From assembly GCA_045590195.1 (NCBI GenBank), contig JAZNQN010000021.1, positions 1,352 to 65,351 of the forward strand: DNA of 64,000 bases. Direction: 5' to 3'. The notes under the pieces were generated by a model. That model saw nothing but the letters and a program-made list of their open reading frames with translations, did not search any database and had not been told where the DNA came from. Source of the stretch: Clostridia bacterium. Lineage in GTDB: Bacteria > Bacillota > Clostridia > UMGS1883 > UMGS1540. The number at the start of each line of letters is the position of its first letter. The stretch's first letter is position 1. Position numbers and translations under genes: made by a program. Below are positions 17,998 to 31,043 of this stretch, in pieces.

Positions 17998-18025
17998 AAA
18001 ACCGCAGATTTAAAAATCTGCGGTT
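17998..18025. terminator. Bidirectional rho-independent terminator
   Basis: aaaccgcagattt-aaaa-atctgcggttt, flanked by A-run and T-run, between convergent genes. Confidence 0.75.
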
Positions 18026-18031
18026 TAATTA

Positions 18032-19438
18032 TTAGGATAAATCTTCTACATAAAGAGTTCTTACTGCATCGTCGCCTTTCGAGAGGGCATCGCTATCTCT
18101 TTTTTCAAAGAATTTAAGTGCAACCTGTGGAAAAAGTGCGTAGCTGAGAACGTCTTCAGGTTTCTGATAGTGGCCTTTTTCTTTAAGCTCTTTTTCATAG
18201 CCTTCAAGTTCAGGCTGAAGTAAATCGGCAGGGCGGCAAGTAATTAAAGGCTCGTCGCCAATTGCTTTTTTTCTTACTTCTTCGTTAACAGGTGCAGGAA
18301 GCTGACCGTATTCGCCACGAAGAACGCCTTTTGATTCTTTTGGAATCATTTTGTATCTCTCGCCTGAGAGAACGTTCATAACAGCCTGAGTACCAACAAT
18401 CTGGCTTGTAGGTGTTACAAGTGGAAGATAACCAAAGTCTTTACGAACTCTTGGAATTTCTGCAAGTACATCGTAATATTTATCTTCGGCACCTGCCTGC
18501 TGAAGCTGTGAAATAAGGTTTGAAAGCATTCCGCCCGGAACCTGATAAAGTAGTGTATTTGTATCAACTTTCAAAACTTTAGGATTAAGTGTTCCCTCTG
18601 CCTGAAGTTTTTCAGCAACGCCTCTGAAATGTTTTGCAATTTCAGAAAGTTTTGTAAGGTCGATACCTGTATCTCTGCCTGTATCTTTAAGTGTTGCAAC
18701 AAGTGCTTCTGTTGAAGGCTGTGCAGTACCGTTAGCAAGCGGAGAAAGCGCACAGTCGACAATATCAACATCGGCCTGAATAGCCATAAGGTTTACCATA
18801 TCGCCTGTACCTGTTGTGTTGTGGGTATGAAGGTGAATTGGTATCTGGATATCGCGTTTTAATGCTTTAACAAGTTCGTAAGCATCGAAAGGCAGTAAAA
18901 GGTTTGCCATATCTTTAATACAAATTGAATCGGCACCCATACTTTCAAGCTTTTTAGCAAGCTTTACAAAGTATTCAATGTTGTGAACAGGGCTTGTTGT
19001 ATAAGAAAGCGCCGCTTCACACCAGCCTTTGTATTTCTTTGTATATTTAATAGCTGCTTCAAGGTTTCTTACGTCATTTAAAGCATCAAATATACGAATA
19101 ACGTCGATACCATTTTCAATCGATTTTTTAACAAATTCCTCAACAACATCGTCTGCATAGTGTTTATAGCCGAGGATATTCTGACCACGGAAAAGCATCT
19201 GCAGTTTTGTGTTAGGCATATGTTTTTTGAATGTTCTGAGTCTTTCCCATGGGTCTTCATCGAGAAAACGCATACAAGCATCGAAGGTTGCGCCACCCCA
19301 GCACTCAAGTGACCAGTAGCCAACTTCATCGAGCATCTCAAGAGCGGGAATCATATCTTCGATACGCATACGTGTTGCCGCCTGACTCTGGTGAGCATCA
19401 CGCAAAATTGTATCTGTAATATATAATTTTTTAGCCAT
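18032..19438 (-). CDS. oadA: Oxaloacetate/methylmalonyl-CoA-type decarboxylase alpha subunit, carboxyltransferase (5S/HMGL-like) domain without a biotinyl domain
   Basis: 468 aa. MAKKLYITDTILRDAHQSQAATRMRIEDM...WSLECWGGATFD is the pyruvate-carboxyltransferase TIM-barrel. No C-terminal biotin attachment motif. Confidence 0.85.
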   Translation of the reverse strand: MAKKLYITDTILRDAHQSQAATRMRIEDMIPALEMLDEVGYWSLECWGGATFDACMRFLDEDPWERLRTFKKHMPNTKLQMLFRGQNILGYKHYADDVVEEFVKKSIENGIDVIRIFDALNDVRNLEAAIKYTKKYKGWCEAALSYTTSPVHNIEYFVKLAKKLESMGADSICIKDMANLLLPFDAYELVKALKRDIQIPIHLHTHNTTGTGDMVNLMAIQADVDIVDCALSPLANGTAQPSTEALVATLKDTGRDTGIDLTKLSEIAKHFRGVAEKLQAEGTLNPKVLKVDTNTLLYQVPGGMLSNLISQLQQAGAEDKYYDVLAEIPRVRKDFGYLPLVTPTSQIVGTQAVMNVLSGERYKMIPKESKGVLRGEYGQLPAPVNEEVRKKAIGDEPLITCRPADLLQPELEGYEKELKEKGHYQKPEDVLSYALFPQVALKFFEKRDSDALSKGDDAVRTLYVEDLS

Positions 19439-19458: not shown

Positions 19459-20655
19459 TTACATAAACAAGGTTAAGAACGCACCTGCAGCAATTGCAGA
19501 GCCTATAACACCCGCAACGTTGGGGCCCATAGCGTGCATAAGAAGGAAGTTTGAAGGGTCTTCTTTCTGGCCGACTACCTGGGACACACGTGCCGCCATT
19601 GGAACTGCCGAAACGCCGGCTGAGCCAATAAGTGGGTTTATCTTGTTCTTTCTTGTGAAAAGGTTCATAATTTTTGCAAGAATTACGCCGCCTGCTGTAC
19701 CGCCTGCAAAAGCAACAACGCCCATTACAACGATTTTAATTGTTCCCCATGTAAGGAACACATCAGCAGTTGCAGTTGCGCCAACAGAAATGCCGAGGAA
19801 TATTGTAACAATATTCATAAGCTCGTTCTGAACTGTTTTTGAAAGGCGCTCAACAACGCCACATTCGCGCATGAGGTTACCAAGCATAAGGCAACCAACA
19901 AGTGGGGCAGCCGATGGAAGCAGAAGTGCAACAAAAATTGTTACAACGATTGGGAAAATAATTTTCTCTGTTCTGCTTACTGAGCGAAGCTGTTTCATTT
20001 TTATCTGGCGTTCTTTTTTAGTTGTTAAAAGCTTCATAATAGGTGGCTGAATTACAGGAACCAGCGCCATATATGAATATGCCGCAACAGCAATAGGACC
20101 GAGAAGTTCCGGTTTAAGCTTACTTGTTACGAAAATAGCTGTAGGACCATCAGCACCGCCGATAATACCGATTGATGCCGCTCCGTTATAGTCAAATCCG
20201 AGAGCCATAGCACCAAAGAATGCAACAAACACACCAAGCTGAGCTGCGGCGCCTAAAAGAAGGCTCTTAGGGTTAGCAATTAGTGGGCCAAAGTCTGTCA
20301 TAGCGCCAACGCCGATGAATATAAGGCATGGGTAAATACCAAGTTTTACGCCAAGGTACAAAACATCGATAAGGCCAACTGCTTCGGTTGTGCCATCTGG
20401 AAGCGGCACGCCGTTTGCAAACATTTCCCAGTGAACATGTCCGCCCTCGAAAAGAGCTGTGTGATACATACCTGCACCGGGCAAATTAGTTAAAAGCATA
20501 CCAAAAGCTATTGGAAGGAGCAAAAGAGGCTCGAACTGTTTAACAATAGCAAGGTACAAAAGCACACAGGAAACAGCAAGCATTATAAGAACTTTCCAGT
20601 TTGCCGCTATCATAGCAAAGCCTGTTTGCCCTAAAAAATCTAAAATTACGTCCAT
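19459..20655 (-). CDS. oadB: Na+-translocating decarboxylase beta subunit (membrane pump)
   Basis: 398-aa polytopic membrane protein of the OadB/MmdB/GcdB family. Confidence 0.85.
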
Positions 20656-20680: not shown

Positions 20681-21058
20681 TTAAGCAATTGTGCAAAGTG
20701 CGCTGCCGCTTTCAACAGAAGAACCTTTTGAAACTGCAACAGATGTAACTTTGCCATCAGCAGGAGCCATAATTTCGTTTTCCATTTTCATAGCTTCGAG
20801 TATCATAAGTACCTGACCTGCTTTAACAGTATCGCCTACTGCAACTTTAACATCTAAAATTGTGCCAGGCATTGGAGCTGAAACTGCTGCGCCTGCGCCT
20901 GTTGCTGCAGGAGCCGGTGCTGCTGCGGGAGCAGGAGCTGCTGCAGGAGCTGCTGCAGGAGCTGCTGCTTTAGGAGCAGGAGCTTTGCCATCATCTTCCA
21001 TAAGTTCAAGAGCGATTTCGTATTCTGTACCATTTACATTTACTTTATATTTTTTCAT
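20681..21058 (-). CDS. Biotin carboxyl carrier subunit of the decarboxylase complex
   Basis: 125 aa. Ala/Pro linker. Biotinylation motif LMILEAMKMENEIMAP (AMKM). Confidence 0.85.
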   Translation of the reverse strand: MKKYKVNVNGTEYEIALELMEDDGKAPAPKAAAPAAAPAAAPAPAAAPAPAATGAGAAVSAPMPGTILDVKVAVGDTVKAGQVLMILEAMKMENEIMAPADGKVTSVAVSKGSSVESGSALCTIA

Positions 21059-21081: not shown

Positions 21082-21477
21082 TTAAAGTTTTTTAATACTT
21101 AAAATTCTGATAGCGCTGACATCTTTGCCCATTTCTTCGGCAAGTGCCGCTGAAACTGCTGCAACAAATTCGCCTTTATTGGGAATTTCGAATTTTGCAG
21201 GAGCTTCCTGTTTTGAAGCTTTAACCTTCTTCTCTTTTGGAGCTTTGTCCTCTTTAATAAAGAGCTGACAAATAGCACCCATAATTTTGCAAATAATAAT
21301 AATTGAAATAAGGCCGATAAATACAAGGCCAAAACCAAATCCAAAAACTGTAAGCGGAGTAATTTCTGCCACTGCTGTTTCAGCTACCTGCTGTGCTGTT
21401 TCCAAAGCTTCGGCAGTTTCTGTTACTGCTTCTGTTGTTGCCGGATTTGAAAAAATTGATAATAATTTTTCGAACAT
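21082..21477 (-). CDS. oadG: Decarboxylase gamma subunit (OadG-like membrane anchor)
   Basis: 131 aa. Single TM helix. C-terminal AAVSAALAEEMG...IRILSIKK typical of OAD_gamma. Confidence 0.7.
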   Translation of the reverse strand: MFEKLLSIFSNPATTEAVTETAEALETAQQVAETAVAEITPLTVFGFGFGLVFIGLISIIIICKIMGAICQLFIKEDKAPKEKKVKASKQEAPAKFEIPNKGEFVAAVSAALAEEMGKDVSAIRILSIKKL

Positions 21478-21558
21478 ACCTATTTCCTCCTTTCATATGT
21501 CAATAGATATCCGCTAAGATGGCGTGCAAAGAAAATTTGCACGCCACTTATGTGCTTA

Positions 21559-22551
21559 TTATAACTGTGAAAGTGCAACTGCAACTGCAACAGTCATACC
21601 AACCATTGGGTTGTTACCTGCACCGATAAGGCCCATCATTTCAACGTGAGCAGGAACTGATGAAGAACCTGCAAACTGTGCATCAGAGTGCATTCTTCCC
21701 ATAGTATCTGTCATACCATAAGAAGCAGGACCTGCAGCCATGTTATCAGGGTGAAGTGTTCTGCCTGTACCGCCACCGGATGCAACGGAGAAGTATTTTT
21801 TACCCTGTTCAATACATTCTTTTTTATATGTTCCTGCAACAGGATGCTGGAAACGAGTTGGGTTAGTTGAGTTACCTGTAATAGAAACGTCAACCTTTTC
21901 GTGATGCATAATAGCAACGCCTTCACGAACATCGTCACAGCCAAAGCAACGAACAGCAGCTCTTTCGCCTTTTGAATAAGCTGTTTCAGAAACAATTTTA
22001 AGCTCGCCTGTGTAGTAATCAAATTCAGTTTCTACAAAAGTAAAGCCATTTATACGTGAAATAATCTGAGCAGCATCTTTTCCAAGACCATTTAAGATTA
22101 CCTGAAGTGGCTCTTTTCTAACTTTGTTAGCTGATTTTGCAATACCGATTGCACCTTCAGCAGCTGCAAATGATTCGTGACCTGCCAAAAATGCAAAACA
22201 TTTTGTATCTTCGCTTAAAAGCATAGCGCCAAGGTTACCGTGACCGATACCAACTTTTCTGTCATCAGCAACAGAGCCGGGGATACAGAAAGCCTGAAGG
22301 CCTTCGCCCAGAATTTCAGCAGCTTCACTGGCGTTTTTGTAGCCTTTTTTAATTGCAATTGCAGCACCTACAATGTAAGCCCAGCAAGCATTTTCAAAGC
22401 AGATAGGCTGAATGCCTTTTACCATATTGTAAACGTCAAGCCCTTTGTCGTCACAAATTTTCTTTGCTTCTTCGATTGAAGCAATGCCGTATTTAGCGAG
22501 TACTGCATCAATCTGTTTTATTCTTCTTTCGTAGCTTTCAAACAATGCCAT
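21559..22551 (-). CDS. Uncharacterised GGGtGRT-family protein
   Basis: 330 aa containing VASGGGTGRTLHPDN. From memory, I take this to be the uncharacterised family named for the GGGtGRT motif. Strong RBS taaggaggg. Confidence 0.6.
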   Translation of the reverse strand: MALFESYERRIKQIDAVLAKYGIASIEEAKKICDDKGLDVYNMVKGIQPICFENACWAYIVGAAIAIKKGYKNASEAAEILGEGLQAFCIPGSVADDRKVGIGHGNLGAMLLSEDTKCFAFLAGHESFAAAEGAIGIAKSANKVRKEPLQVILNGLGKDAAQIISRINGFTFVETEFDYYTGELKIVSETAYSKGERAAVRCFGCDDVREGVAIMHHEKVDVSITGNSTNPTRFQHPVAGTYKKECIEQGKKYFSVASGGGTGRTLHPDNMAAGPASYGMTDTMGRMHSDAQFAGSSSVPAHVEMMGLIGAGNNPMVGMTVAVAVALSQL

Positions 22552-22565
22552 TATAAGTACCCTCC

Positions 22566-23270
22566 TTACTGCTGACGTGGATTGATAACGCGAGCTGCAT
22601 CATCAAATCTGCCGTACTGGCCGGATGCTTTCTGCATAGCTTCGTTTGCATCCATGCCTTTGCCTATCATTTCCATCATTTTACCAAGGTGAACAAATTT
22701 GTAACCGATAATGTGATCTTCATCATCAATTGCCATTTCTGTTATGTAACCTTCAGCAAGTTCGAGGTAACGAGCACCTTTTTCTTTTGTTGAGAATACA
22801 GTACCAACCTGGCTGCGGAGACCTTTACCAAGATCTTCAAGACCGGCACCGATTGGAAGACCGCCTTCTGAGAAAGCTGTTTGAGTTCTTCCGTAAACTA
22901 TCTGAAGGAAGAGTTCTCTCATTGCTGTGTTAATAGCATCACAAACAAGGTCAGTATTAAGAGCTTCAAGCAAGGTTTTACCAACGAGGATTTCACCAGC
23001 CATAGCAGCCGAGTGAGTCATACCGGAGCAACCACATGTTTCAACGAGAGCTTCTTCGATAATACCTTCTTTAACATTGAGTGTTAATTTACATGTTCCC
23101 TGCTGGGGAGCACACCAGCCGATACCGTGTGTAAGACCGGAGATATCGCTGATCTGTTTTGCTTTTACCCATTTACCCTCTTCAGGAATGGGAGCATTTT
23201 CGTGACGTACGCCTTTTGCAACGCAAGTCATCTGTTCAACTTCGTGCGAGTAATTCATCTTATGCTTCAT
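22566..23270 (-). CDS. NifU/IscU-like Fe-S scaffold-domain protein with C-terminal extension
   Basis: GWCAPQQGTCKLTLNVKEGIIEEALVETCGCSGMTHSAAMAGEILVGKTLLEALN aligns with the IscU core (GAPACGDVMKL...FKTFGCGSAIASSS). 14-nt gap to the GGGtGRT gene. Confidence 0.6.
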   Translation of the reverse strand: MKHKMNYSHEVEQMTCVAKGVRHENAPIPEEGKWVKAKQISDISGLTHGIGWCAPQQGTCKLTLNVKEGIIEEALVETCGCSGMTHSAAMAGEILVGKTLLEALNTDLVCDAINTAMRELFLQIVYGRTQTAFSEGGLPIGAGLEDLGKGLRSQVGTVFSTKEKGARYLELAEGYITEMAIDDEDHIIGYKFVHLGKMMEMIGKGMDANEAMQKASGQYGRFDDAARVINPRQQ

Positions 23271-23398
23271 ACCTTTCTGCCCACAAAATATTTAATTAGC
23301 AACGCCTCCGTGGGGGGATAACGCGCTTTCGGGGCGCCTTTCGGCACCCGTAAATCCAAAGATAATTAAATTATATCATTTATGGAAAAATTTTTCAA
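23271..23398 (-). promoter_or_regulatory. Promoter (TTGAAA - 17 nt - TGaTATAAT) and ~100-nt structured 5' leader of the IscU-like/GGGtGRT operon
   Basis: Minus strand: -35 at 23393-23398, extended -10 at 23370-23378. The leader holds a hairpin GGGUGCC-GAAA-GGCGCCC plus further GC-rich segments (CGAAAGCGCG, CCCCCCACGGAGGCG). Confidence 0.45.
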
Positions 23399-23412
23399 TA
23401 GTTTTTTTACAA

Positions 23413-25068
23413 TTATTTGTAAAATTTAATCATTTCTTCTGCGGCTTTTTTAGCACTTTCGCTTATATTATCGCCGCTTATAATTCTTGCAACCTCCAAA
23501 ACCCTTTCATGGTGGTCAAGAATATGTACATTTGTACTAAAGCTTTCATTTTCAAAGCTTTTTTCGATAAGGTAATGATTTTCGGCCAGAGAGGCAATTT
23601 GCGGAAGATGGGTTATACAAATAACCTGTTTCTTTTTGCCAAGGGAGCAAAGCTTTTCGCCTATTCTTCCCGCCGCTTTTCCGCTTACACCCGTATCAAT
23701 TTCGTCAAACACCAAAGTGCCAACGCCATCAGCATCGGACAAAACTGTTTTTATTGCAAGGCATATTCTTGACATTTCGCCGCCCGATGCAATATTTACG
23801 AGAGGTTTTAAATTTTCCTGAGGATTTGTTGAAACCATAAATTCTATTTTATCCTGCCCGTTTGATGCAAAATTATCTTTTTCCACCAAAACCCCAAAGC
23901 GTACTTTTTCCATATCGAGAAATTTAAGTTCTTCGTTTACGCCTTTTTCTATTTTTTCTGCCGCAGCTTTTCTTTTTGAAGAAAGTTTATCGGCGCAAAG
24001 CGAAAGTTTTTCACGAAGGGCTGTAAGCTCTTTTGAAAGCTCCGCCTCCCTTTCGCCCGAAAACTCAATGTTTTTAACTTCTTCGCGCAAAGTGTCGGCA
24101 TAAGAAAGAATTTCGGAAATCGAAGAGCCGTATTTTGTTTTAAGTTTGCTTATAAGATAAAGCCTTTCCTCTATCTGCGAAAGCTCCCCTTCATCAAAAT
24201 CAAGATTTGATCCATAAGAAGAAATTTCTCTTGCAACATCTTCTGCCCTGTACAAAATTTCGGAAAGTTCATCTATTTTCTTTGCCATTTCGCCATCGCA
24301 GGAAGCGGCATCAGAAAGAGTATTTACTGCGCCCGAAAGGCAGGCACAGGCATTTATATCGCCACCGTAAAGAGCCTCGTATGCACCAATTACGCTCATT
24401 TTTATTTTTTCGCTGTTTTTAATTATTTTAAGCTTTTCGGAAAGCTCTTCTTCCTCGCCTTCGATTAAATCGGCACTATCAATTTCCGAAAGCCAGAAAC
24501 GAAGTGAATCGAGTTTTCTCAGCTTTTCGCTTTCATCGCACTTAAGACTTTCAATTTCTTTTTCTGTTTCTTTTATTTTTGAATATATTTCTTTATACTC
24601 TGCCAAAAGGTTGCCGCTTAAAGCATAGTGGTCAACAAAGTCTATATGATTTGCTTTTGAAAGAAGCTTTTGGCCATCGTTCTGACCGTGAATATTTACG
24701 AGCAGGTGACCAATTTTTTTAAGCCCAGCAACAGATGACATTTCGCCGTTTACTTTGCAGACATTTCGCCCGTCATCAAATATTTCGCGGCTTATGGGAA
24801 TTTCGTTGCCTTCAAAAGGGCCGATTTCTTCTTCCAGAGCACTTTTTTCTGCATCTGAAAGCAGAAACATAGCCTCAACCTTTGCCCTTTTTTCGCCATG
24901 GCGGATTATGTCGCGGCTGCTCCTCTCCCCAAGCACCATATTAAGCGAATCAATTATAAGGGACTTACCTGCCCCCGTTTCGCCCGTTAAAACATTAAAG
25001 CCACCAAAAAGCGTTATTTCGCTTTTTTCAATAACGGCTACATTTGAAATAATAAGCTGACTTAGCAT
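23413..25068 (-). CDS. recN: DNA repair protein RecN
   Basis: 551 aa. Walker A GETGAGKS at the N-terminus. Long coiled-coil middle. C-terminal SMC-like signature region. Confidence 0.9.
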   Translation of the reverse strand: MLSQLIISNVAVIEKSEITLFGGFNVLTGETGAGKSLIIDSLNMVLGERSSRDIIRHGEKRAKVEAMFLLSDAEKSALEEEIGPFEGNEIPISREIFDDGRNVCKVNGEMSSVAGLKKIGHLLVNIHGQNDGQKLLSKANHIDFVDHYALSGNLLAEYKEIYSKIKETEKEIESLKCDESEKLRKLDSLRFWLSEIDSADLIEGEEEELSEKLKIIKNSEKIKMSVIGAYEALYGGDINACACLSGAVNTLSDAASCDGEMAKKIDELSEILYRAEDVAREISSYGSNLDFDEGELSQIEERLYLISKLKTKYGSSISEILSYADTLREEVKNIEFSGEREAELSKELTALREKLSLCADKLSSKRKAAAEKIEKGVNEELKFLDMEKVRFGVLVEKDNFASNGQDKIEFMVSTNPQENLKPLVNIASGGEMSRICLAIKTVLSDADGVGTLVFDEIDTGVSGKAAGRIGEKLCSLGKKKQVICITHLPQIASLAENHYLIEKSFENESFSTNVHILDHHERVLEVARIISGDNISESAKKAAEEMIKFYK

Positions 25069-25083: not shown

Positions 25084-25542
25084 TTAATTATCTATCATAG
25101 AAGTGAGTGTTTTTGTAAGGGACGCGGCATCTTTTTCACTTTTTACCACAACCAAAACAGTATCGTCCCCTGCGATTGTGCCCAAAATTTCGCTATATCC
25201 CATTCCCTCAATTGTAATTGCCGCCGCCTGAGCCATTCCCGAAAGGGTTTTAATAACTATCTGATTCATAGCATAATCGGCGCTTACTACTGAATTTGAA
25301 AAAATTGTTTTAATTCTGCTTCCACTGCCTGCAATATTACTGCTTGAGCCCTGCTGAGCATAGCGATATCTACCGTCGCCCGTTTGCAGTTTCATAATAT
25401 TAAGGTCTTTGATATCACGGGAAACAGTTGCCTGTGTTACGTTGAAGCCCATTTTTTCAAGCTCACGTGTAAGCTCGTCCTGAGTTTCAATAACTTTTGA
25501 GTTTATAAGCGATAAAATTGTGTTATGTCTTTTTTGTTTCAT
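25084..25542 (-). CDS. argR: Arginine repressor
   Basis: 152 aa. N-terminal winged helix (QDELTRELEKMGFNVTQATVSRDIKDL). C-terminal oligomerisation/arginine-binding domain (GDDT). Confidence 0.9.
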   Translation of the reverse strand: MKQKRHNTILSLINSKVIETQDELTRELEKMGFNVTQATVSRDIKDLNIMKLQTGDGRYRYAQQGSSSNIAGSGSRIKTIFSNSVVSADYAMNQIVIKTLSGMAQAAAITIEGMGYSEILGTIAGDDTVLVVVKSEKDAASLTKTLTSMIDN

Positions 25543-25554
25543 AGCATAAAACCT

Positions 25555-26400
25555 CTATTTCAGTTTTTCGGAAAGCAAATTATAAAATCCGTTTCCATTT
25601 ATTTTTACAAGCCTTGTTTTATAATTTGATTTTTTAATATACACTCTGTCGCCGCCTGATATAACGCATCTTTCTTTTCCGTCGGCCGTAACGGCGCTTA
25701 CATCGGTTGCGTTTTGCGGTTTTGAAATTTTAATAATTTTTGTTGACGGAACAACTATTGGCCTCGCCCTCAAAAGATGCGGACATACTGGCGTTATAAC
25801 CATAGCATCAAGGGCGGGGTCGGCTATAGGGCCGCCTGCAGAAAGCGAATAAGCCGTAGTCCCCGTAGGAGTTGCAACAATTACACCATCGGCCAGGTAG
25901 TTTCCAAGCAATTCATCATCGATATAAATATCAATGTTTTCCATTCTTGCAAAGTCCATTCGTTTTATAACTATATCGTTAAGTGCGGCAACGGTTTCTT
26001 TTTTACCGTCGCGATGAAGAATTTTAGCCTCAATCATCATTCGCTCTTCAATTTCAAAACCTGTTTCAAGCTTTTTATATTCTTCTTCACAAAAGCTTTT
26101 GCTTTCACTTCCCGTAAGAAAGCCAAGTCTTCCTAAATTCACGCCCAAAACTGCTTTTTCGTAAGGGGCGGCATTATGTGCAACCTCAAGAAGTGTTCCA
26201 TCTCCTCCAAGGGCAATAATTATATCGCACTCTTCGTAAATGTTTTCACAAAAATTACCGCAAAGCTTATCAGAAAGCTTTTGTTGAAAATAAACTTCGG
26301 AAAAGGTTGAAAGCTTTTTTGCAATTTTTCTTGTATATTCAAAATTTTTATCTTTAATTTCGTTGGGAACTAATCCTATTTTCAAGTCATTCCACCCCAC
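25555..26400 (-). CDS. nadK: NAD kinase
   Basis: 281 aa. GGDGTLL motif and the DGxxxxTxxGSTAYSxSAGGP block. Confidence 0.9.
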   Translation of the reverse strand: MGWNDLKIGLVPNEIKDKNFEYTRKIAKKLSTFSEVYFQQKLSDKLCGNFCENIYEECDIIIALGGDGTLLEVAHNAAPYEKAVLGVNLGRLGFLTGSESKSFCEEEYKKLETGFEIEERMMIEAKILHRDGKKETVAALNDIVIKRMDFARMENIDIYIDDELLGNYLADGVIVATPTGTTAYSLSAGGPIADPALDAMVITPVCPHLLRARPIVVPSTKIIKISKPQNATDVSAVTADGKERCVISGGDRVYIKKSNYKTRLVKINGNGFYNLLSEKLK

Positions 26401-26450
26401 TTTAATATTATTATATCTATTTTTCTCTTAACAGTCAATAAAAATTTAAC

Positions 26451-26480
26451 AAAAAAACGAGGTGTTTAAACACCTCGTTT
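26451..26480 (-). terminator. Rho-independent terminator of the 26485-27744 gene
   Basis: Hairpin acgaggtgtttaaacacctcgt, followed on the minus strand by UUUUUUU. Confidence 0.7.
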
Positions 26481-26484
26481 CAAA

Positions 26485-27744
26485 CTAATTTAAAATATAA
26501 ACTTTTGCCTGACGTCTGCCAAAAGAAAGAGCTTCTGCACGGCTGTTATAGAAAAGGTCAACCCTGTTTCCGCGGATACCGCTTCCTGTATCGCCTGCTA
26601 CGCAGTAGCCATAGGTCCACGAGCCGTCAACCGCTTCGATATAAAGCTTTGTTCCAAGAGGAATAACTCTCGGGTCAACCGCAACAACACCATACTGCGC
26701 CTTCATACCGCTGGCAGTAATGCCATAATGCGGGTCGCCGGGATATTTTCCGCAGCTTTCATATGAAAGGTCGTAAGCAGATGCACTGCAGGTTATAACG
26801 CGTGAATAGCTGAATCCTTTTGATGAAATAACAGAATTTGTTTTACTGGTTGCAGATGATGGCGCGGGTTTTGTTGAAGCATAGGCAATTTTTGTGCCAA
26901 CTTCAACTATTTTCTTAACGGCATCTTTTTCAACAACAGTATTTACAACATTTCTTTCAATTTCAACGCCATCTTTGTATTTGACCTCATAGGTAACGGT
27001 TTTAAGCCCGTTTTTACCTGCCTGAGAAACCTTTGTTGTTCCTTTTGCCAAAGATGAATTGTTTCTTTTTTCAGTAGTGTACGGAATTACCTCAGAAACA
27101 TCCTCGTACTTAACCTTGACAGCAGAAATTTTAATTTTCATTCCCGCTTTAAGTTTTACCGAATCGTCAAGATTTACGTGAATTTCACTCTTTTCTTCGA
27201 TTCCAAGCTCGCTTATAAGCTCGCCAACTGAATAAGCAGACGAATTTACAGTTCTTTCACCATTTGCATCAATGATTACAAAATCTTTTGCACGCCTGAT
27301 TTCAATAAGCATATTTTCGCCTACTTTGCTTTGTGCATCCGGAACAACTCTGTCGTTTTCACCCAAAGTATAACCGGCCTGATCAAGAATATCCTGAACA
27401 GTTTTGCCGCTGCTGAGATATTCAGTAACTGTGCCTTCATCGGAAACAGAAACCTTAACCGCCCTGTAAACTGTAATAGCCATATCGTTTACAACAACTT
27501 CGTCTTTACCGGGTTCAACCCTGTCGAAATTGCCCAGTGTTATTCCTGCTTCTTCCAAAACGCCCGAAACAGTTGCCTCTCTTGTTTTTAAATTCAATGT
27601 CTTTTCTCCGTCGTGTATCACAACTGCATTGTTAGACCATGCAGCCATAAGCAAAATGAAGCTCAAAATAAGAAGTACTGAAACAGATGTCAAAATTGCA
27701 TATTTTTTTATCTCGTGTTTGGTGAGTTTTTTCATTTCAAACAT
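26485..27744 (-). CDS. Membrane-anchored DUF348-G5-3D domain protein (YabE-like cell-wall protein)
   Basis: N-terminal TM helix. Repeated DUF348-like units (GVLEEAGITLGNFDRVEP / DILDQAGYTLGENDRVVP). G5-like region. C-terminal 3D domain (VAVDPRVIPLGTKLYIE...GYCVAGDTGSGIRGNRVDLFY). Confidence 0.8.
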   Translation of the reverse strand: MFEMKKLTKHEIKKYAILTSVSVLLILSFILLMAAWSNNAVVIHDGEKTLNLKTREATVSGVLEEAGITLGNFDRVEPGKDEVVVNDMAITVYRAVKVSVSDEGTVTEYLSSGKTVQDILDQAGYTLGENDRVVPDAQSKVGENMLIEIRRAKDFVIIDANGERTVNSSAYSVGELISELGIEEKSEIHVNLDDSVKLKAGMKIKISAVKVKYEDVSEVIPYTTEKRNNSSLAKGTTKVSQAGKNGLKTVTYEVKYKDGVEIERNVVNTVVEKDAVKKIVEVGTKIAYASTKPAPSSATSKTNSVISSKGFSYSRVITCSASAYDLSYESCGKYPGDPHYGITASGMKAQYGVVAVDPRVIPLGTKLYIEAVDGSWTYGYCVAGDTGSGIRGNRVDLFYNSRAEALSFGRRQAKVYILN

Positions 27745-28296
27745 CCAATCACTCCTTTGCCACGTATTTTACAATAACTTTTGCCTTTTGTCAAATATTT
27801 TTTAACGAGTTTTTGAAAAGTTTTTAAAAAATTGTTACAAAAACCATTGCCGAAATCCTTGTTTTTTAAGGGTTTTGCCGATTTTGGAGCTTTTTTAAAA
27901 AAATGTTAAAAAAATTTCTGGAAATTGAATATTTTTACTATATTTTTACATTTTATTACATTTTTTTCCATTTTTAAAAAGGTGTATTTTTTCCTTATTT
28001 TTTCAGAAAAAGCCCATAAAAACGCGGTTTTCACCAAAATTGCACCCCTAAATGTATTGCTGTGTTTTTTTTAAAACCCCAATATGTAGTTGTTGATTTT
28101 TTGGAATTTTAAGGAAATTTATATGTAAAATCCTTCCAAAATCAAGCTTTTAAGGCACTGCTTTTGAGCCTTTAAAATTATTAAAATTTATTACAAAACT
28201 AATCCGCCAAAATCATTTAAATTCTGACGGATTACTGCAATTATTTTTTCAAAATATTATGAGTTTCTTCCTATTATTATATAATAATATATAAAA

Positions 28297-28893
28297 CTAC
28301 TGGCTGCAGGTATATGGGGCAAGCTCAAGTTTTACAAAATATCCCTTTTCGTGACTGCAAACAGGGCAATGCTCGGGAACATCTTTTCCGCTATGAATAT
28401 GGCCGCAATTAAGACACATCCATTTTGTTTCATTTTCGCAGGAGTAAAGTTTATTTTGTTCCATCATTTCCTGAAACATTTTAAAGCGGTCGCCATGAGT
28501 TTTTTCAATTTTGGCAATCATTTTAAAAGATGCGGCAATGCTTTGAAAACCTTCTTCTCTTGCCTTTTGTTCAAAGGCAGGGTAAGCGTCGCCGCTTTCT
28601 TCAAACTCGTTATGGGCGGCGCATTTTAAAATTTCTGCCATTGACTCGTTTATATCAACTGGATACGAGCCATCAATTTTAATATTCTCGCCTGCACATT
28701 CTTTTAAATGGTTATAAAAAATTTCGGCGTGTTCCTTTTCCTGACCTGCGGTAAATTTAAAAACTTCTTCAAGGGCATAATGCTTTTGTGCTCTTGCCTG
28801 AGAAGCGGCAAAGGTATAGCGGTTTCTTGCCTGGCTTTCGCCTGCAAAGGCACGCATTAAATTAAGCCTTGTTTCGCTTTGTTTAAAATCCAT
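28297..28893 (-). CDS. Rubrerythrin (diiron ferritin-like domain + C-terminal rubredoxin-like CxxC...CxxC)
   Basis: Start set to ATG 28891-28893 (MDFKQSE) with RBS aaggagg. The ORF-track start at 28953 has no RBS. ExxH diiron motifs. C-terminal CLNCGH...CPVCSH. Confidence 0.85.
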   Translation of the reverse strand: MDFKQSETRLNLMRAFAGESQARNRYTFAASQARAQKHYALEEVFKFTAGQEKEHAEIFYNHLKECAGENIKIDGSYPVDINESMAEILKCAAHNEFEESGDAYPAFEQKAREEGFQSIAASFKMIAKIEKTHGDRFKMFQEMMEQNKLYSCENETKWMCLNCGHIHSGKDVPEHCPVCSHEKGYFVKLELAPYTCSQ

Positions 28894-29042
28894 AGTAAAA
28901 TCCTCCTTATATATAATAAGGATATTTTTACCTTTTTTTATTTTTTTATTCAAAGTTTAAGAGAGCGGCAAAGCCGCTCCCCTAAAAAATGTTATAAAGG
29001 AAATTGCAATTTTCGTTTTTTGGAAAATCAAGATTTTCCTCT

Positions 29043-29867
29043 TTATAGCATAAACTCATAAAGGTCGCGTGTTACAACCATTTCGCTATTCTCGTGTGAC
29101 TGCAAAAACGATACAGGCATAAAGCGGGACTCATCCTGAAGGGAAATTTTGCGGGCTATACCCCACTGCCAGTCGCAGTAAAGATAAACTTTTAAAACTT
29201 TTGCTTTAAGAAGCTGTTTCATACCGAGAGTTACGCATCTTCTCGGGAAAATTTCAAGAGCACCACGCATTTTGTGAAGGCCGTTATTTACAATTGTTTC
29301 TTTTGAAATATCAAGCTTTCTTGTGCCGATATTTTTGTATTCTTCATCGGTAATATTTTCGTCCTGTGCAGGAGGCTCGTTAAATGCAATATGGCCGTTT
29401 ATGCCTACGCCTGTAAGGCAGATGTCAACTTTACCCAAGGTTTCAAAAAGTGCGTCAATTTCAGCTTCTTTTCCTGGTTCAGGGAAAAGGCGCTGGCTTT
29501 CAGGCATAATAAGGTCTTTATCAATTTTTGAATAGAGAAGATTATCCATAATCTGATGGAAGCTTAAAATACTTTCGTATTCAATGGTTTCATCATTATC
29601 TGTAAGATATTCATCCATATTGATAAACCAGCAATTTTTAAGGTTTATTCTTTCTTTATTGATAATTTCTGCAAATGGCGGATACTGCATAATTGGGCCA
29701 ACAGGGCAGATAATTACAGTTTTTTCGCCTTTTTTGTTGTTTTCGATAATGGTATCAGCCATAAGACGAGCCATTTCGTCATACATTTCGGCCTCTTTTT
29801 CCATAACACGCATTGGAATTTTTGCGTTTTCAAGCCATTTTTCAGGTGCGCAGGTATAAGTGTTCAT
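29043..29867 (-). CDS. Glucosamine/galactosamine-6-phosphate isomerase family protein (NagB/AgaI-like)
   Basis: 274 aa. FINMDEYL and GVGINGHIAFNEP blocks of the sugar-phosphate isomerase/deaminase family. Confidence 0.7.
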   Translation of the reverse strand: MNTYTCAPEKWLENAKIPMRVMEKEAEMYDEMARLMADTIIENNKKGEKTVIICPVGPIMQYPPFAEIINKERINLKNCWFINMDEYLTDNDETIEYESILSFHQIMDNLLYSKIDKDLIMPESQRLFPEPGKEAEIDALFETLGKVDICLTGVGINGHIAFNEPPAQDENITDEEYKNIGTRKLDISKETIVNNGLHKMRGALEIFPRRCVTLGMKQLLKAKVLKVYLYCDWQWGIARKISLQDESRFMPVSFLQSHENSEMVVTRDLYEFML

Positions 29868-29879
29868 TTTAAATTCTCC

Positions 29880-31043
29880 TTATTTTATAAATTTTCCGCC
29901 AATCATTACTTTGGCAGGATATAAATTTTCATCAGCAATATAAATATCAGCAAGCTTGCCCTTTTCAAGAGAGCCGATTTCTTTCTCCATTCCTATAACT
30001 TTGGCAGGAGTAAGGCTTGCCATTTTAGTAGCATCTACAAGCGGTATTCCGTTTTCAACTATGTTTCTGAGCATCTGTGAAAGCGGCTGAATACTGCCTG
30101 CAAAACGAGTTCCATCGGTAAGGCGGGCAACCCCATCGGAAACGATAAACTTTGTTGCCTCCTCATCGTCTTTCATACCGAGGGTATAAACTCTGCCATC
30201 GCGTGGCATTCCGCCTGCACGAAGACAATCGGAAACAATACAGAGCTTATCTGCCCCTTTGCATTTATAAGCAACCTTTAAAAGTTCGGGGATAATATGA
30301 TGATTATCTGCTAAAAGCTCAAGGGTAAGCCTTTCGTCGGTAAGGCCTATTTCCATAAGGCCTGCATATCTTTTGCCTTCTTCAACCCTTGCGGTTGACA
30401 TTGCGCAGTACCAGTGAGTACAGTTTGAAAGGCCTGCTTCAATACAGGGGTAAATTGTATCGCTTCTGCCATCATCGTGTCCGCCGGAAACTACAATTCC
30501 CTTTTCTTTTAGTGCTTTTGTCATTTCTACTGCTCCGGGAAGCTCGGTAGAAATAGTAACATTTTTAATAACATCGCTGTTATCTAAAATAAAATCGTAG
30601 CTGTCTTTACTTGGCACACGCAAAAATTCTGCTTTTTGTGCGCCCTTATTTTTATAAGAGATATAAGGCCCTTCAATATGTGCGCCCAAAACGCGGCATA
30701 TATCGGTTTTTTTCATATATTCTCTTGTTCTTTTAACCATAAACTCAATACTTTTTACAGGGGCGGTTACAGAAGATGTTAAAAGCGATGTTGTACCGCT
30801 GCTGCTATGAAATTTAAGGGCGTTTTCATAGTCTTCAATATCTTCATCCATAAAGTCGCCGCCAAAGCCGCCATGAGTATGAATGTCGACAAGGCCGGGG
30901 AGAACATATTTTCCCGTAGCATCATATTCTTCTCCCCCTGAAAGGGCGTAGCCTATTTCTACTATTTTATCGCCTTCAATTTTAATATCGGCGCCTTCTA
31001 AAATTTCGTCCTTTAAAACAAGATTACCGTTTTTAATTATCAT
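29880..31043 (-). CDS. nagA: N-acetylglucosamine-6-phosphate deacetylase
   Basis: 387 aa. GLVDIHTHGGFGGDFMD metal-binding motif. Amidohydrolase fold. Confidence 0.85.
   Translation of the reverse strand: MIIKNGNLVLKDEILEGADIKIEGDKIVEIGYALSGGEEYDATGKYVLPGLVDIHTHGGFGGDFMDEDIEDYENALKFHSSSGTTSLLTSSVTAPVKSIEFMVKRTREYMKKTDICRVLGAHIEGPYISYKNKGAQKAEFLRVPSKDSYDFILDNSDVIKNVTISTELPGAVEMTKALKEKGIVVSGGHDDGRSDTIYPCIEAGLSNCTHWYCAMSTARVEEGKRYAGLMEIGLTDERLTLELLADNHHIIPELLKVAYKCKGADKLCIVSDCLRAGGMPRDGRVYTLGMKDDEEATKFIVSDGVARLTDGTRFAGSIQPLSQMLRNIVENGIPLVDATKMASLTPAKVIGMEKEIGSLEKGKLADIYIADENLYPAKVMIGGKFIK

Follow-up and report, generated by a model that had tools for sequence, protein, structure and literature searches.

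A conserved IscU-like/GGGtGRT gene pair beside a Na+-pump decarboxylase operon in a Clostridia bacterium: a candidate two-subunit iron-dependent enzyme

We analyzed a two-gene unit in a 64-kb stretch of a Clostridia bacterium genome (contig JAZNQN010000021.1, positions 1,352 to 65,351; hereafter the window). The unit encodes an IscU-like protein and a protein of the GGGtGRT family, and all of its features lie on the minus strand. The open reading frame (ORF) of the small, IscU-like subunit (23258..22566, 230 amino acids) is followed by a 14-nucleotide (nt) spacer (22552-22565), which carries AAGGAGGG, the ribosome-binding site of the second gene. The ORF of the large subunit, GGGtGRT (22551..21559, 330 amino acids), belongs to Pfam family PF14057, and its SGGGTGRT segment covers residues 258-265. 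A promoter and a leader precede the pair, and an 81-nt gap separates it from the genes of a Na+-translocating biotin decarboxylase (oad). A previous sequence-only reading of this DNA had described the ORFs, the spacer, the promoter, the leader, the gap and the order of the oad genes, and its structural description was accurate in every checkable detail. The two ORFs are a genuine bicistronic unit and an ordinary member of a known, uncharacterized family.

The pairing of the two genes is conserved far beyond this genome. A genome scan in which each species was represented by one genome yielded at least 598 loci, and we kept 80 whose GGGtGRT proteins were 78-95% identical to that of the window. 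These loci came from at least eight bacterial phyla (Bacillota, Bacteroidota, Myxococcota, Desulfobacterota, Spirochaetota, Lentisphaeria, Acidobacteriota and Actinomycetota), mainly from anaerobes and from metagenome-assembled genomes (MAGs) of anoxic habitats. A homolog was also present in Methanobacteriaceae. An IscU-like gene lay directly upstream of the GGGtGRT gene, on the same strand, in all 75 species-level loci that had upstream DNA; the remaining five kept loci begin within about 130 nt of a contig end. The intergenic distance was usually 10-20 nt. When all flanking ORFs were clustered and the two nearest genes on each side (258 genes) were searched with Pfam, no other recurrent flanking family was found. 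The pair is an autonomous, obligately paired bicistronic unit. The suggestion that it is a genuine module was thus borne out, in these loci and also in a divergent clade described below.

Both proteins are strongly constrained. The mean identity of GGGtGRT was 81.3% within phyla and 79.7% between phyla. The G+C content at third codon positions of its gene ranged from 19% to 90% and followed the host genome; therefore, the uniformity of the protein reflects constraint rather than recent transfer. Between Oscillospiraceae and Lachnospiraceae genomes, pairwise identities were 77-79% for GGGtGRT and 75-77% for the partner, compared with 59-60% for Pgk, 50-52% for TpiA and 57% for GpmI in the same genome pairs. 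Sequence change is slower in the pair than in these three glycolytic enzymes. At 50% identity, the GGGtGRT family comprised essentially two real full-length clusters. An exact-sequence look-up of the GGGtGRT and OadB proteins of the window found neither on record.

The IscU-like ORF was first called at 23270..22566, with 234 amino acids. Nearly all homologs have 230 amino acids and start with MNYSHE, and the conspecific contig L099 has TTG and differing residues at the upstream start position. Therefore, the ATG at 23258 is probably the real start. The two in-frame ATGs (23270 and 23258) are 12 nt apart on the minus strand, and a Shine-Dalgarno-like element, AGAAAGG, lies 1 nt from the former and 13 nt from the latter; neither spacing is ideal.

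Databases label the small subunit 'NifU' or 'Fe-S cluster assembly scaffold'. Its score with the Pfam model NifU_N (PF01592) was 21.7 bits, just below the cut-off of 22.0. The scaffold models TIGR01999 (24.9 versus 187.9 bits) and TIGR03419 (20.0 versus 192.4 bits) and the SufU model TIGR01994 (18 versus 92.5 bits) also scored below their cut-offs. A profile of the small-subunit family matched A. fulgidus IscU (4eb5_C) with E = 5e-5. In a Foldseek search with the predicted structure, all top matches were IscU or SufU structures (probability 0.99-1.0, root-mean-square deviation about 3 Å over about 95 residues, TM-score to the target about 0.5), and the IscU-like fold covered residues ~44-122. 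The model was of low confidence (predicted local distance difference test, pLDDT, 58), and this fold match is supportive only. For the C-terminal domain of about 110 residues, we found no Pfam match at E ≤ 10 and no relative in the PDB.

The metal site of IscU has been rewired in this protein. Among 76 sequences plus the divergent clade, four cysteines (C49, C56, C77 and C106) and one histidine (H44) are invariant (numbering of the 230-residue form). The cysteines are located in CAPQQGTC, at the second cysteine of CGCSGM and in LVCDAI. The sequence-only reading had named CAPQQGTC and ETCGCSGM as conserved. The first motif and the second cysteine of CGCSGM hold, but the first cysteine of 'ETCGC' is not conserved and is replaced by isoleucine in 62% of sequences. 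In alignments with IscU, only the equivalent of Cys63 is retained; Cys37 is replaced by glutamine and Asp39 is absent. Relative to human ISCU, a 16-residue deletion takes out LPPVK, His105 and Cys106. Judged from these alignments, the small subunit has an IscU-like fold but is not a canonical IscU scaffold. Because the four cysteines and the histidine are invariant, we propose a permanent centre: a fully ligated four-cysteine site suggests a permanent Fe-S cluster or metal centre rather than a transient scaffold.

The genomic surroundings also differ from those of an assembly system. Genes for cysteine desulfurases (IscS/SufS-like) were found within 8 kb of the pair in merely two of 83 loci, and none of these loci had IscA, HscB, SufB, SufD or SufE nearby. 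The 64-kb window has no IscS or Suf-type assembly gene besides the IscU-like ORF itself.

The large subunit is a typical member of its family. It matched PF14057 with E = 1.3e-196 and 652.6 bits (cut-off 27), residues 4-329 aligning with positions 1-326 of the 327-position profile. The eponymous motif is present (SVASGGGTGRTLHPDN), and the length of 330 amino acids fits the family range of about 329-335. In an alignment of 40 sequences covering both clades, the motif is invariant, as are 99 of the 330 columns. A confident AlphaFold2 model (pLDDT 82; predicted template modelling score, pTM, 0.84) contained a helical N-terminal domain and a Rossmann-like alpha/beta core. Its C-terminal region is nearly all invariant, and confidence is low for parts of this region, among them much of the GGGTGRT loop. 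Invariant loops are gathered at the C-terminal edge (AGHES, TGNSTNP, SGGGTGRT-HPDN, MTDTMGRMHSD and PAHVEMMG), and many arginines and lysines elsewhere in the protein are invariant as well. Foldseek with this model against the PDB gave nothing with E < 0.01 or TM > 0.3, and a profile search of PDB sequences returned noise only. Three metagenomic proteins of 430-494 amino acids (P0001, P0005 and P0241) scored above the self-match and contained tandem duplications of 40-150 residues. We rejected them as natural fusions; these internal duplications are most likely assembly artefacts due to strain collapse.

In a divergent clade, GGGtGRT proteins share 51-58% identity with that of the window and are paired with a partner of their own; the two genes overlap. 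All seven members with flanking DNA share a conserved operon, with the order helix-turn-helix regulator, apgM, HAD phosphatase or ORF without assignment, partner, GGGtGRT, a 320-residue ORF and His_Phos_1 (L089 5997-10603; L093 2572-8580; L095 391-6859; L097 301-5405; L102 842-6141; L104 291-6364; L105 118-3526). His_Phos_1 occurs in all seven and the archaeal-type phosphoglycerate mutase gene apgM in six; the apgM product matched NF003104 with 517 bits, above the equivalog cut-off of 489. One locus (L095) additionally has iPGM and one has a HAD phosphatase. The 320-residue protein has two predicted N-terminal membrane helices and no family match, and a search anchored on it recovered only an already known locus. 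With the PADLOC defence models, no meaningful match was obtained for the pair or for the divergent-clade operon; the sole match was a weak PtuB (E = 0.0056) on an unassigned 304-residue ORF in L093.

Within the main clade, a link to the same part of metabolism was seen in a few genomes. The pair directly follows gap-pgk-tpiA-gpmI in a Lachnospiraceae MAG (L077, 2544-9011) and pgk-tpiA-gpmI in a Limivicinus MAG (L048, 3578-8999), on the same strand in both cases. Two further loci, L036 and L060, are weaker cases. Many Clostridia carry eno at the position after gap-pgk-tpiA-gpmI. We also surveyed operators in the 300 nt upstream of the partner gene. A Rex/CRP-type palindrome (TTGTTAA-N4-TTAACAA, at most three mismatches) occurred in 18 of 75 loci, compared with about three expected. 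All 18 were Bacillota (among them L013, L021, L022, L025, L050, L062, L063, L071, L082, L084 and L088), and several Lachnospiraceae have it at a fixed position near -60. Fur and Fur19 operators were not enriched upstream of the pair, and those of PerR (12 versus 9.6 expected) and cre (2 versus 0.7) were at most marginally so.

Published data on the family come from expression and genetic studies. No function has been assigned in the searchable literature, as the sequence-only reading had supposed and as papers of 2024-2025 state explicitly (PMC11204068, PMC12078515). The pair of B. thetaiotaomicron, BT0173-74, goes down 11- to 13-fold upon iron depletion (PMC10434189), and the homolog in C. 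pasteurianum responds to iron availability (PMC5395762). Metaproteomes of gut and rumen show high expression of the GGGtGRT protein (PMC11204068, PMC7035244). Transposon insertions in BT0173-4, alongside pfkA, were obtained in a screen for loss of glucose-dependent Roc silencing, in which their effect was a modest, 2-fold one (bioRxiv 10.64898/2026.04.10.717545).

Downstream of the pair lie oadG (OAD_gamma, 21477..21082), a biotin carrier gene (Biotin_lipoyl, BCCP; 21058..20681), oadB (OAD_beta, 20655..19459) and an oadA-type carboxyltransferase gene (19438..18032), all identified by domain matches. An intrinsic-terminator-like hairpin with a T-run (18026..17999; a 12-bp stem followed by TTTTATTTTG) marks the end of the transcription unit. 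Within 8 kb of the pair, however, none of the 88 related loci had oadG, BCCP, oadB or oadA (E < 1e-5); these loci include metagenomic relatives that are 88-93% identical and have wholly different flanks, as well as 88-95%-identical relatives from other Oscillospiraceae-like genomes. Among the loci compared, the adjacency of the pair to Na+-pump decarboxylase genes was found in this genome alone, and a functional tie between the pair and the decarboxylase is not supported. The oad genes are neighbours outside the conserved module.

The gap between the GGGtGRT gene and oadG (21558-21478) holds a strong hairpin (21516..21550). Its folding energy was -28.6 kcal/mol for a 101-nt stretch, with a z-score of -3.6. 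As noted earlier for this gap, the hairpin has no U-run; its tail is AUCUUAGCGG, and it was not called as a minus-strand intrinsic terminator. It is probably a leaky terminator or a 3'-stabilizer. The scan gave no promoter-like site between the GGGtGRT gene and oadG. For this reason, and given the missing U-run, read-through from the promoter of the pair probably accounts for the transcription of the oad genes. Within the oad operon, the Ala/Pro-rich linker of the biotin carrier (20860-20990), which is GCAGC/CTGCT repeat-like, gave spurious miRNA- or sRNA-like Rfam matches far below the gathering scores.

The promoter of the pair is of the sigma-70 type (TTGAAA-17-TG-n-TATAAT, 23398..23370). 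As had been proposed, it is strong: 11 of 12 positions match the consensus, with an extended -10 element, and it was the top-scoring site across the 8-kb region scanned (17.5-25.5 kb). Sites of this quality number 12 in the window versus 2.0 under a Markov expectation (6-fold), and those with TG number 6 versus 0.12 (50-fold). The -10 element and its flanking bases are common to the window and L099.

The 5' leader (23259..23363) has ~93-105 nt, about 105 nt when measured to the conserved ATG. Its 46-nt core has a G+C content of 70%, compared with 39% for the window, and a hairpin with a GAAA tetraloop (GGGUGCC-GAAA-GGCGCCC, 23349-23332) is unique in the window. Both features agree with the sequence-only reading, but a conserved structure was not found. 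The folding of the whole leader was not significantly stable (z = -0.93), and Rfam 15 covariance models gave no match at E ≤ 10 against 23259-23400. The leader could not be aligned with those of 88-95%-identical relatives, which are short and AT-rich, and its exact sequence had no match in metagenome contigs. Only one further sequence, from the conspecific contig L099, had the same leader ends, leaving two sequences for comparison. In L099 (3690-4100), which encodes a partner 100% identical to that of the window and shows the same nadK-argR-recN synteny, the -10 element and the 3' end of the leader are as in the window, with about 290 extra nucleotides between them. A hairpin of different sequence stands at the position equivalent to the GAAA-tetraloop hairpin, and this long variant had no Rfam match either. 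By this comparison, the leader genuinely exists but is restricted to this species, in which it varies. As it has no Rfam match and is not conserved in relatives, it does not appear to be a known or conserved cis-regulatory RNA. An 11-codon frame in the leader, which starts with TTG and ends in an ATGA overlap with the ATG at 23270, was rejected as an upstream ORF because GGAGG is only 2 nt from the TTG and the frame is not conserved in L099.

On its other side, the unit is preceded by recN (25068..23413), and it seems to have been placed between recN and the oad operon in this genome. Further upstream (25084-31043, minus strand) are genes for ArgR, an NAD kinase, a cell-wall protein with 3D and G5 domains, a rubrerythrin (28953..28297, minus strand) and nagB/nagA-like products, all named from their translations. 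The nadK-argR-recN stretch is common to the window and L099.

Taken as a whole, the data are best explained, in our estimate with a probability of about one half, if the pair is a two-subunit iron-dependent enzyme connected with redox state and the triose/phosphoglycerate node, and not an accessory of the decarboxylase. The pairing, the rewired IscU site, the conservation and the synteny are shown directly, whereas the complex, the kind of metal centre and the substrate are inferred from them. We favor an enzyme because expression is iron-dependent, the proteins are abundant, the synteny is of a phosphoglycerate type and Rex-like operators precede many of the genes. The two products would form a stoichiometric complex. 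The small subunit would supply an IscU fold in which the metal site has been rebuilt as four invariant cysteines plus an invariant histidine, and the invariant loops at the C-terminal edge of the large subunit are where an anionic and probably phosphorylated substrate would be likely to bind. Such a pair would be an abundant enzyme of fermentative central metabolism, dependent on iron and linked to the redox state and to the triose/phosphoglycerate node. In this genome, its strong promoter would also drive the oad genes through the leaky hairpin. A more specific version, a core Fe-S enzyme that acts on a phosphorylated C3 intermediate near the 3-phosphoglycerate/2-phosphoglycerate node, is a tentative proposal that we consider possible but doubtful. 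It might, for instance, stand in for a classical glycolytic step as a ferredoxin-linked or iron-dependent enzyme. If it were true, it would explain why the pair equals the glycolytic enzymes in abundance and exceeds them in conservation.

Several points weigh against an enzyme at this node. No biochemical datum exists for any member of the family. The glycolytic link of the main clade amounts to about three independent synteny events in 80 loci, the divergent clade could use a different substrate, and the transposon phenotype that supports the link is modest, as mentioned above. GGGtGRT has no strictly invariant cysteine, and a cluster is suggested solely by the conserved cysteines of the partner, whose site could bind zinc, as in SufU; the structural model of the partner is also the poor one. 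Complex formation is deduced from gene order. The Rex-like operator is absent in this window, where the best site has five mismatches, and as a sequence the palindrome is indistinguishable from a CRP/FNR-type site.

Other explanations have to be weighed against the same data. The pair might be a specialized system for the assembly, carriage or repair of Fe-S clusters or iron, in which GGGtGRT is a partner or an ATP-dependent helper. The IscU-like fold and sequence of the small subunit, its database names and the strongly iron-dependent expression would all fit, and the glycine-rich GGGtGRT loops could bind nucleotide. However, one of the three IscU cysteines is kept while Asp39, LPPVK, His105 and Cys106 are gone, and the TIGR scaffold models reach 18-25 bits where 92-192 are required. 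Desulfurases accompany the pair in just two of the 83 loci and the other ISC/SUF genes named above are absent nearby, the four fully invariant cysteines suggest a permanent site, and a dedicated maturase would not normally be so abundant or more conserved than glycolytic enzymes. We therefore regard an assembly system as unlikely, and the Fe-S scaffold or cofactor-maturation role that the sequence-only reading had hinted at is not supported, as the partner lacks the IscU-defining residues and desulfurases are rarely nearby. Its narrower form, in which the pair matures a cofactor of the neighbouring decarboxylase, is unsupported because neither the adjacency nor the leader is conserved. More generally, a role in maturing, regulating or otherwise assisting the downstream Na+-translocating decarboxylase would draw on the position of the pair, on the same strand as oadG-BCCP-oadB-oadA and separated from it by an 81-nt gap with no promoter-like site and a hairpin without a U-run. 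Synteny largely refutes it, since no oad gene lies within 8 kb of the pair in any of the 88 related loci, and since the taxa and settings in which the pair is found have no connection with decarboxylases. We consider this role highly improbable.

A non-enzymatic role, as an abundant protein of iron binding, iron storage or oxidative stress comparable to rubrerythrin or ferritin, would account for the repression under iron limitation and for a report that counts the protein, along with rubrerythrins, among those that gut anaerobes commonly express at high levels. The pair is also dispensable for growth of B. thetaiotaomicron in vitro, and a rubrerythrin gene is about 5 kb away in the window. 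Against this role, about 30% of GGGtGRT columns are invariant and cluster in loops that border a Rossmann-like sheet and resemble an active site, and the paralog-clade operon with phosphomutases and phosphatases points to small-molecule chemistry. The proteins have no similarity to ferritin-like or rubrerythrin folds. Such a role thus seems quite improbable to us.

For this window the outcome is deflationary, as both the GC-rich leader and the position beside the decarboxylase genes are accidental local features outside the system. For the family, a vague annotation of 'NifU plus hypothetical' can be replaced by testable hypotheses, which are based on the obligatory pairing, the non-canonical scaffold, the paralog clade among phosphoglycerate-mutase-type genes and the Rex-like operators in many Bacillota. 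GGGtGRT and its partner matter in that they evolve slowly and are strongly expressed by anaerobes of the gut and rumen, yet the searchable literature assigns them no function, and BT0173-74 of B. thetaiotaomicron offers a tractable system.

Comparison with known systems places the favored enzyme in context. DhaK, which binds a C3 triose, has a Dak1 'SGGGSGHEP' loop, and GGGtGRT resembles it locally in a beta-strand followed by SGGG(S/T)G...H-P. We treat this likeness as a lead only. GGGtGRT has no Pfam Dak1 match at E ≤ 10 and Foldseek gave no DhaK; hhalign placed precisely this stretch in its alignment, but with a probability of 1.7%, and the 'SGGGxG..HP' motif was rejected as evidence. With the N-terminal domain of IscU/NifU, the small subunit shares the fold and the cysteine of 'GC' that corresponds to Cys63 in E. 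coli. It differs from IscU in three additional invariant cysteines (C49, C56 and C106), His44, the C-terminal domain of ~110 residues and the lack of linkage to a cysteine desulfurase or chaperones. SufU is a further parallel, an IscU-fold protein that binds metal through cysteine ligands instead of assembling a transient cluster, to which the small subunit is weakly similar in sequence and fold. Its ligand positions differ from those of SufU, sufS and sufBCD are not nearby and the GGGtGRT partner is obligatory. The two-subunit Fe-S hydro-lyases, such as L-serine dehydratase (alpha/beta) and the class I fumarate and tartrate hydratases, are bicistronic, with subunit sizes similar to those of the pair. 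They are oxygen-sensitive, iron-dependent enzymes that are abundant in fermenters, act on C3/C4-acid substrates and are typically repressed when iron is limited. The pair has no sequence or fold similarity to them. In the hydro-lyases, three cysteines hold the cluster, which leaves one iron free for catalysis. By analogy, the four invariant cysteines of the small subunit, unlike the three of the hydro-lyases, would favor a site for electron transfer or a structural site.

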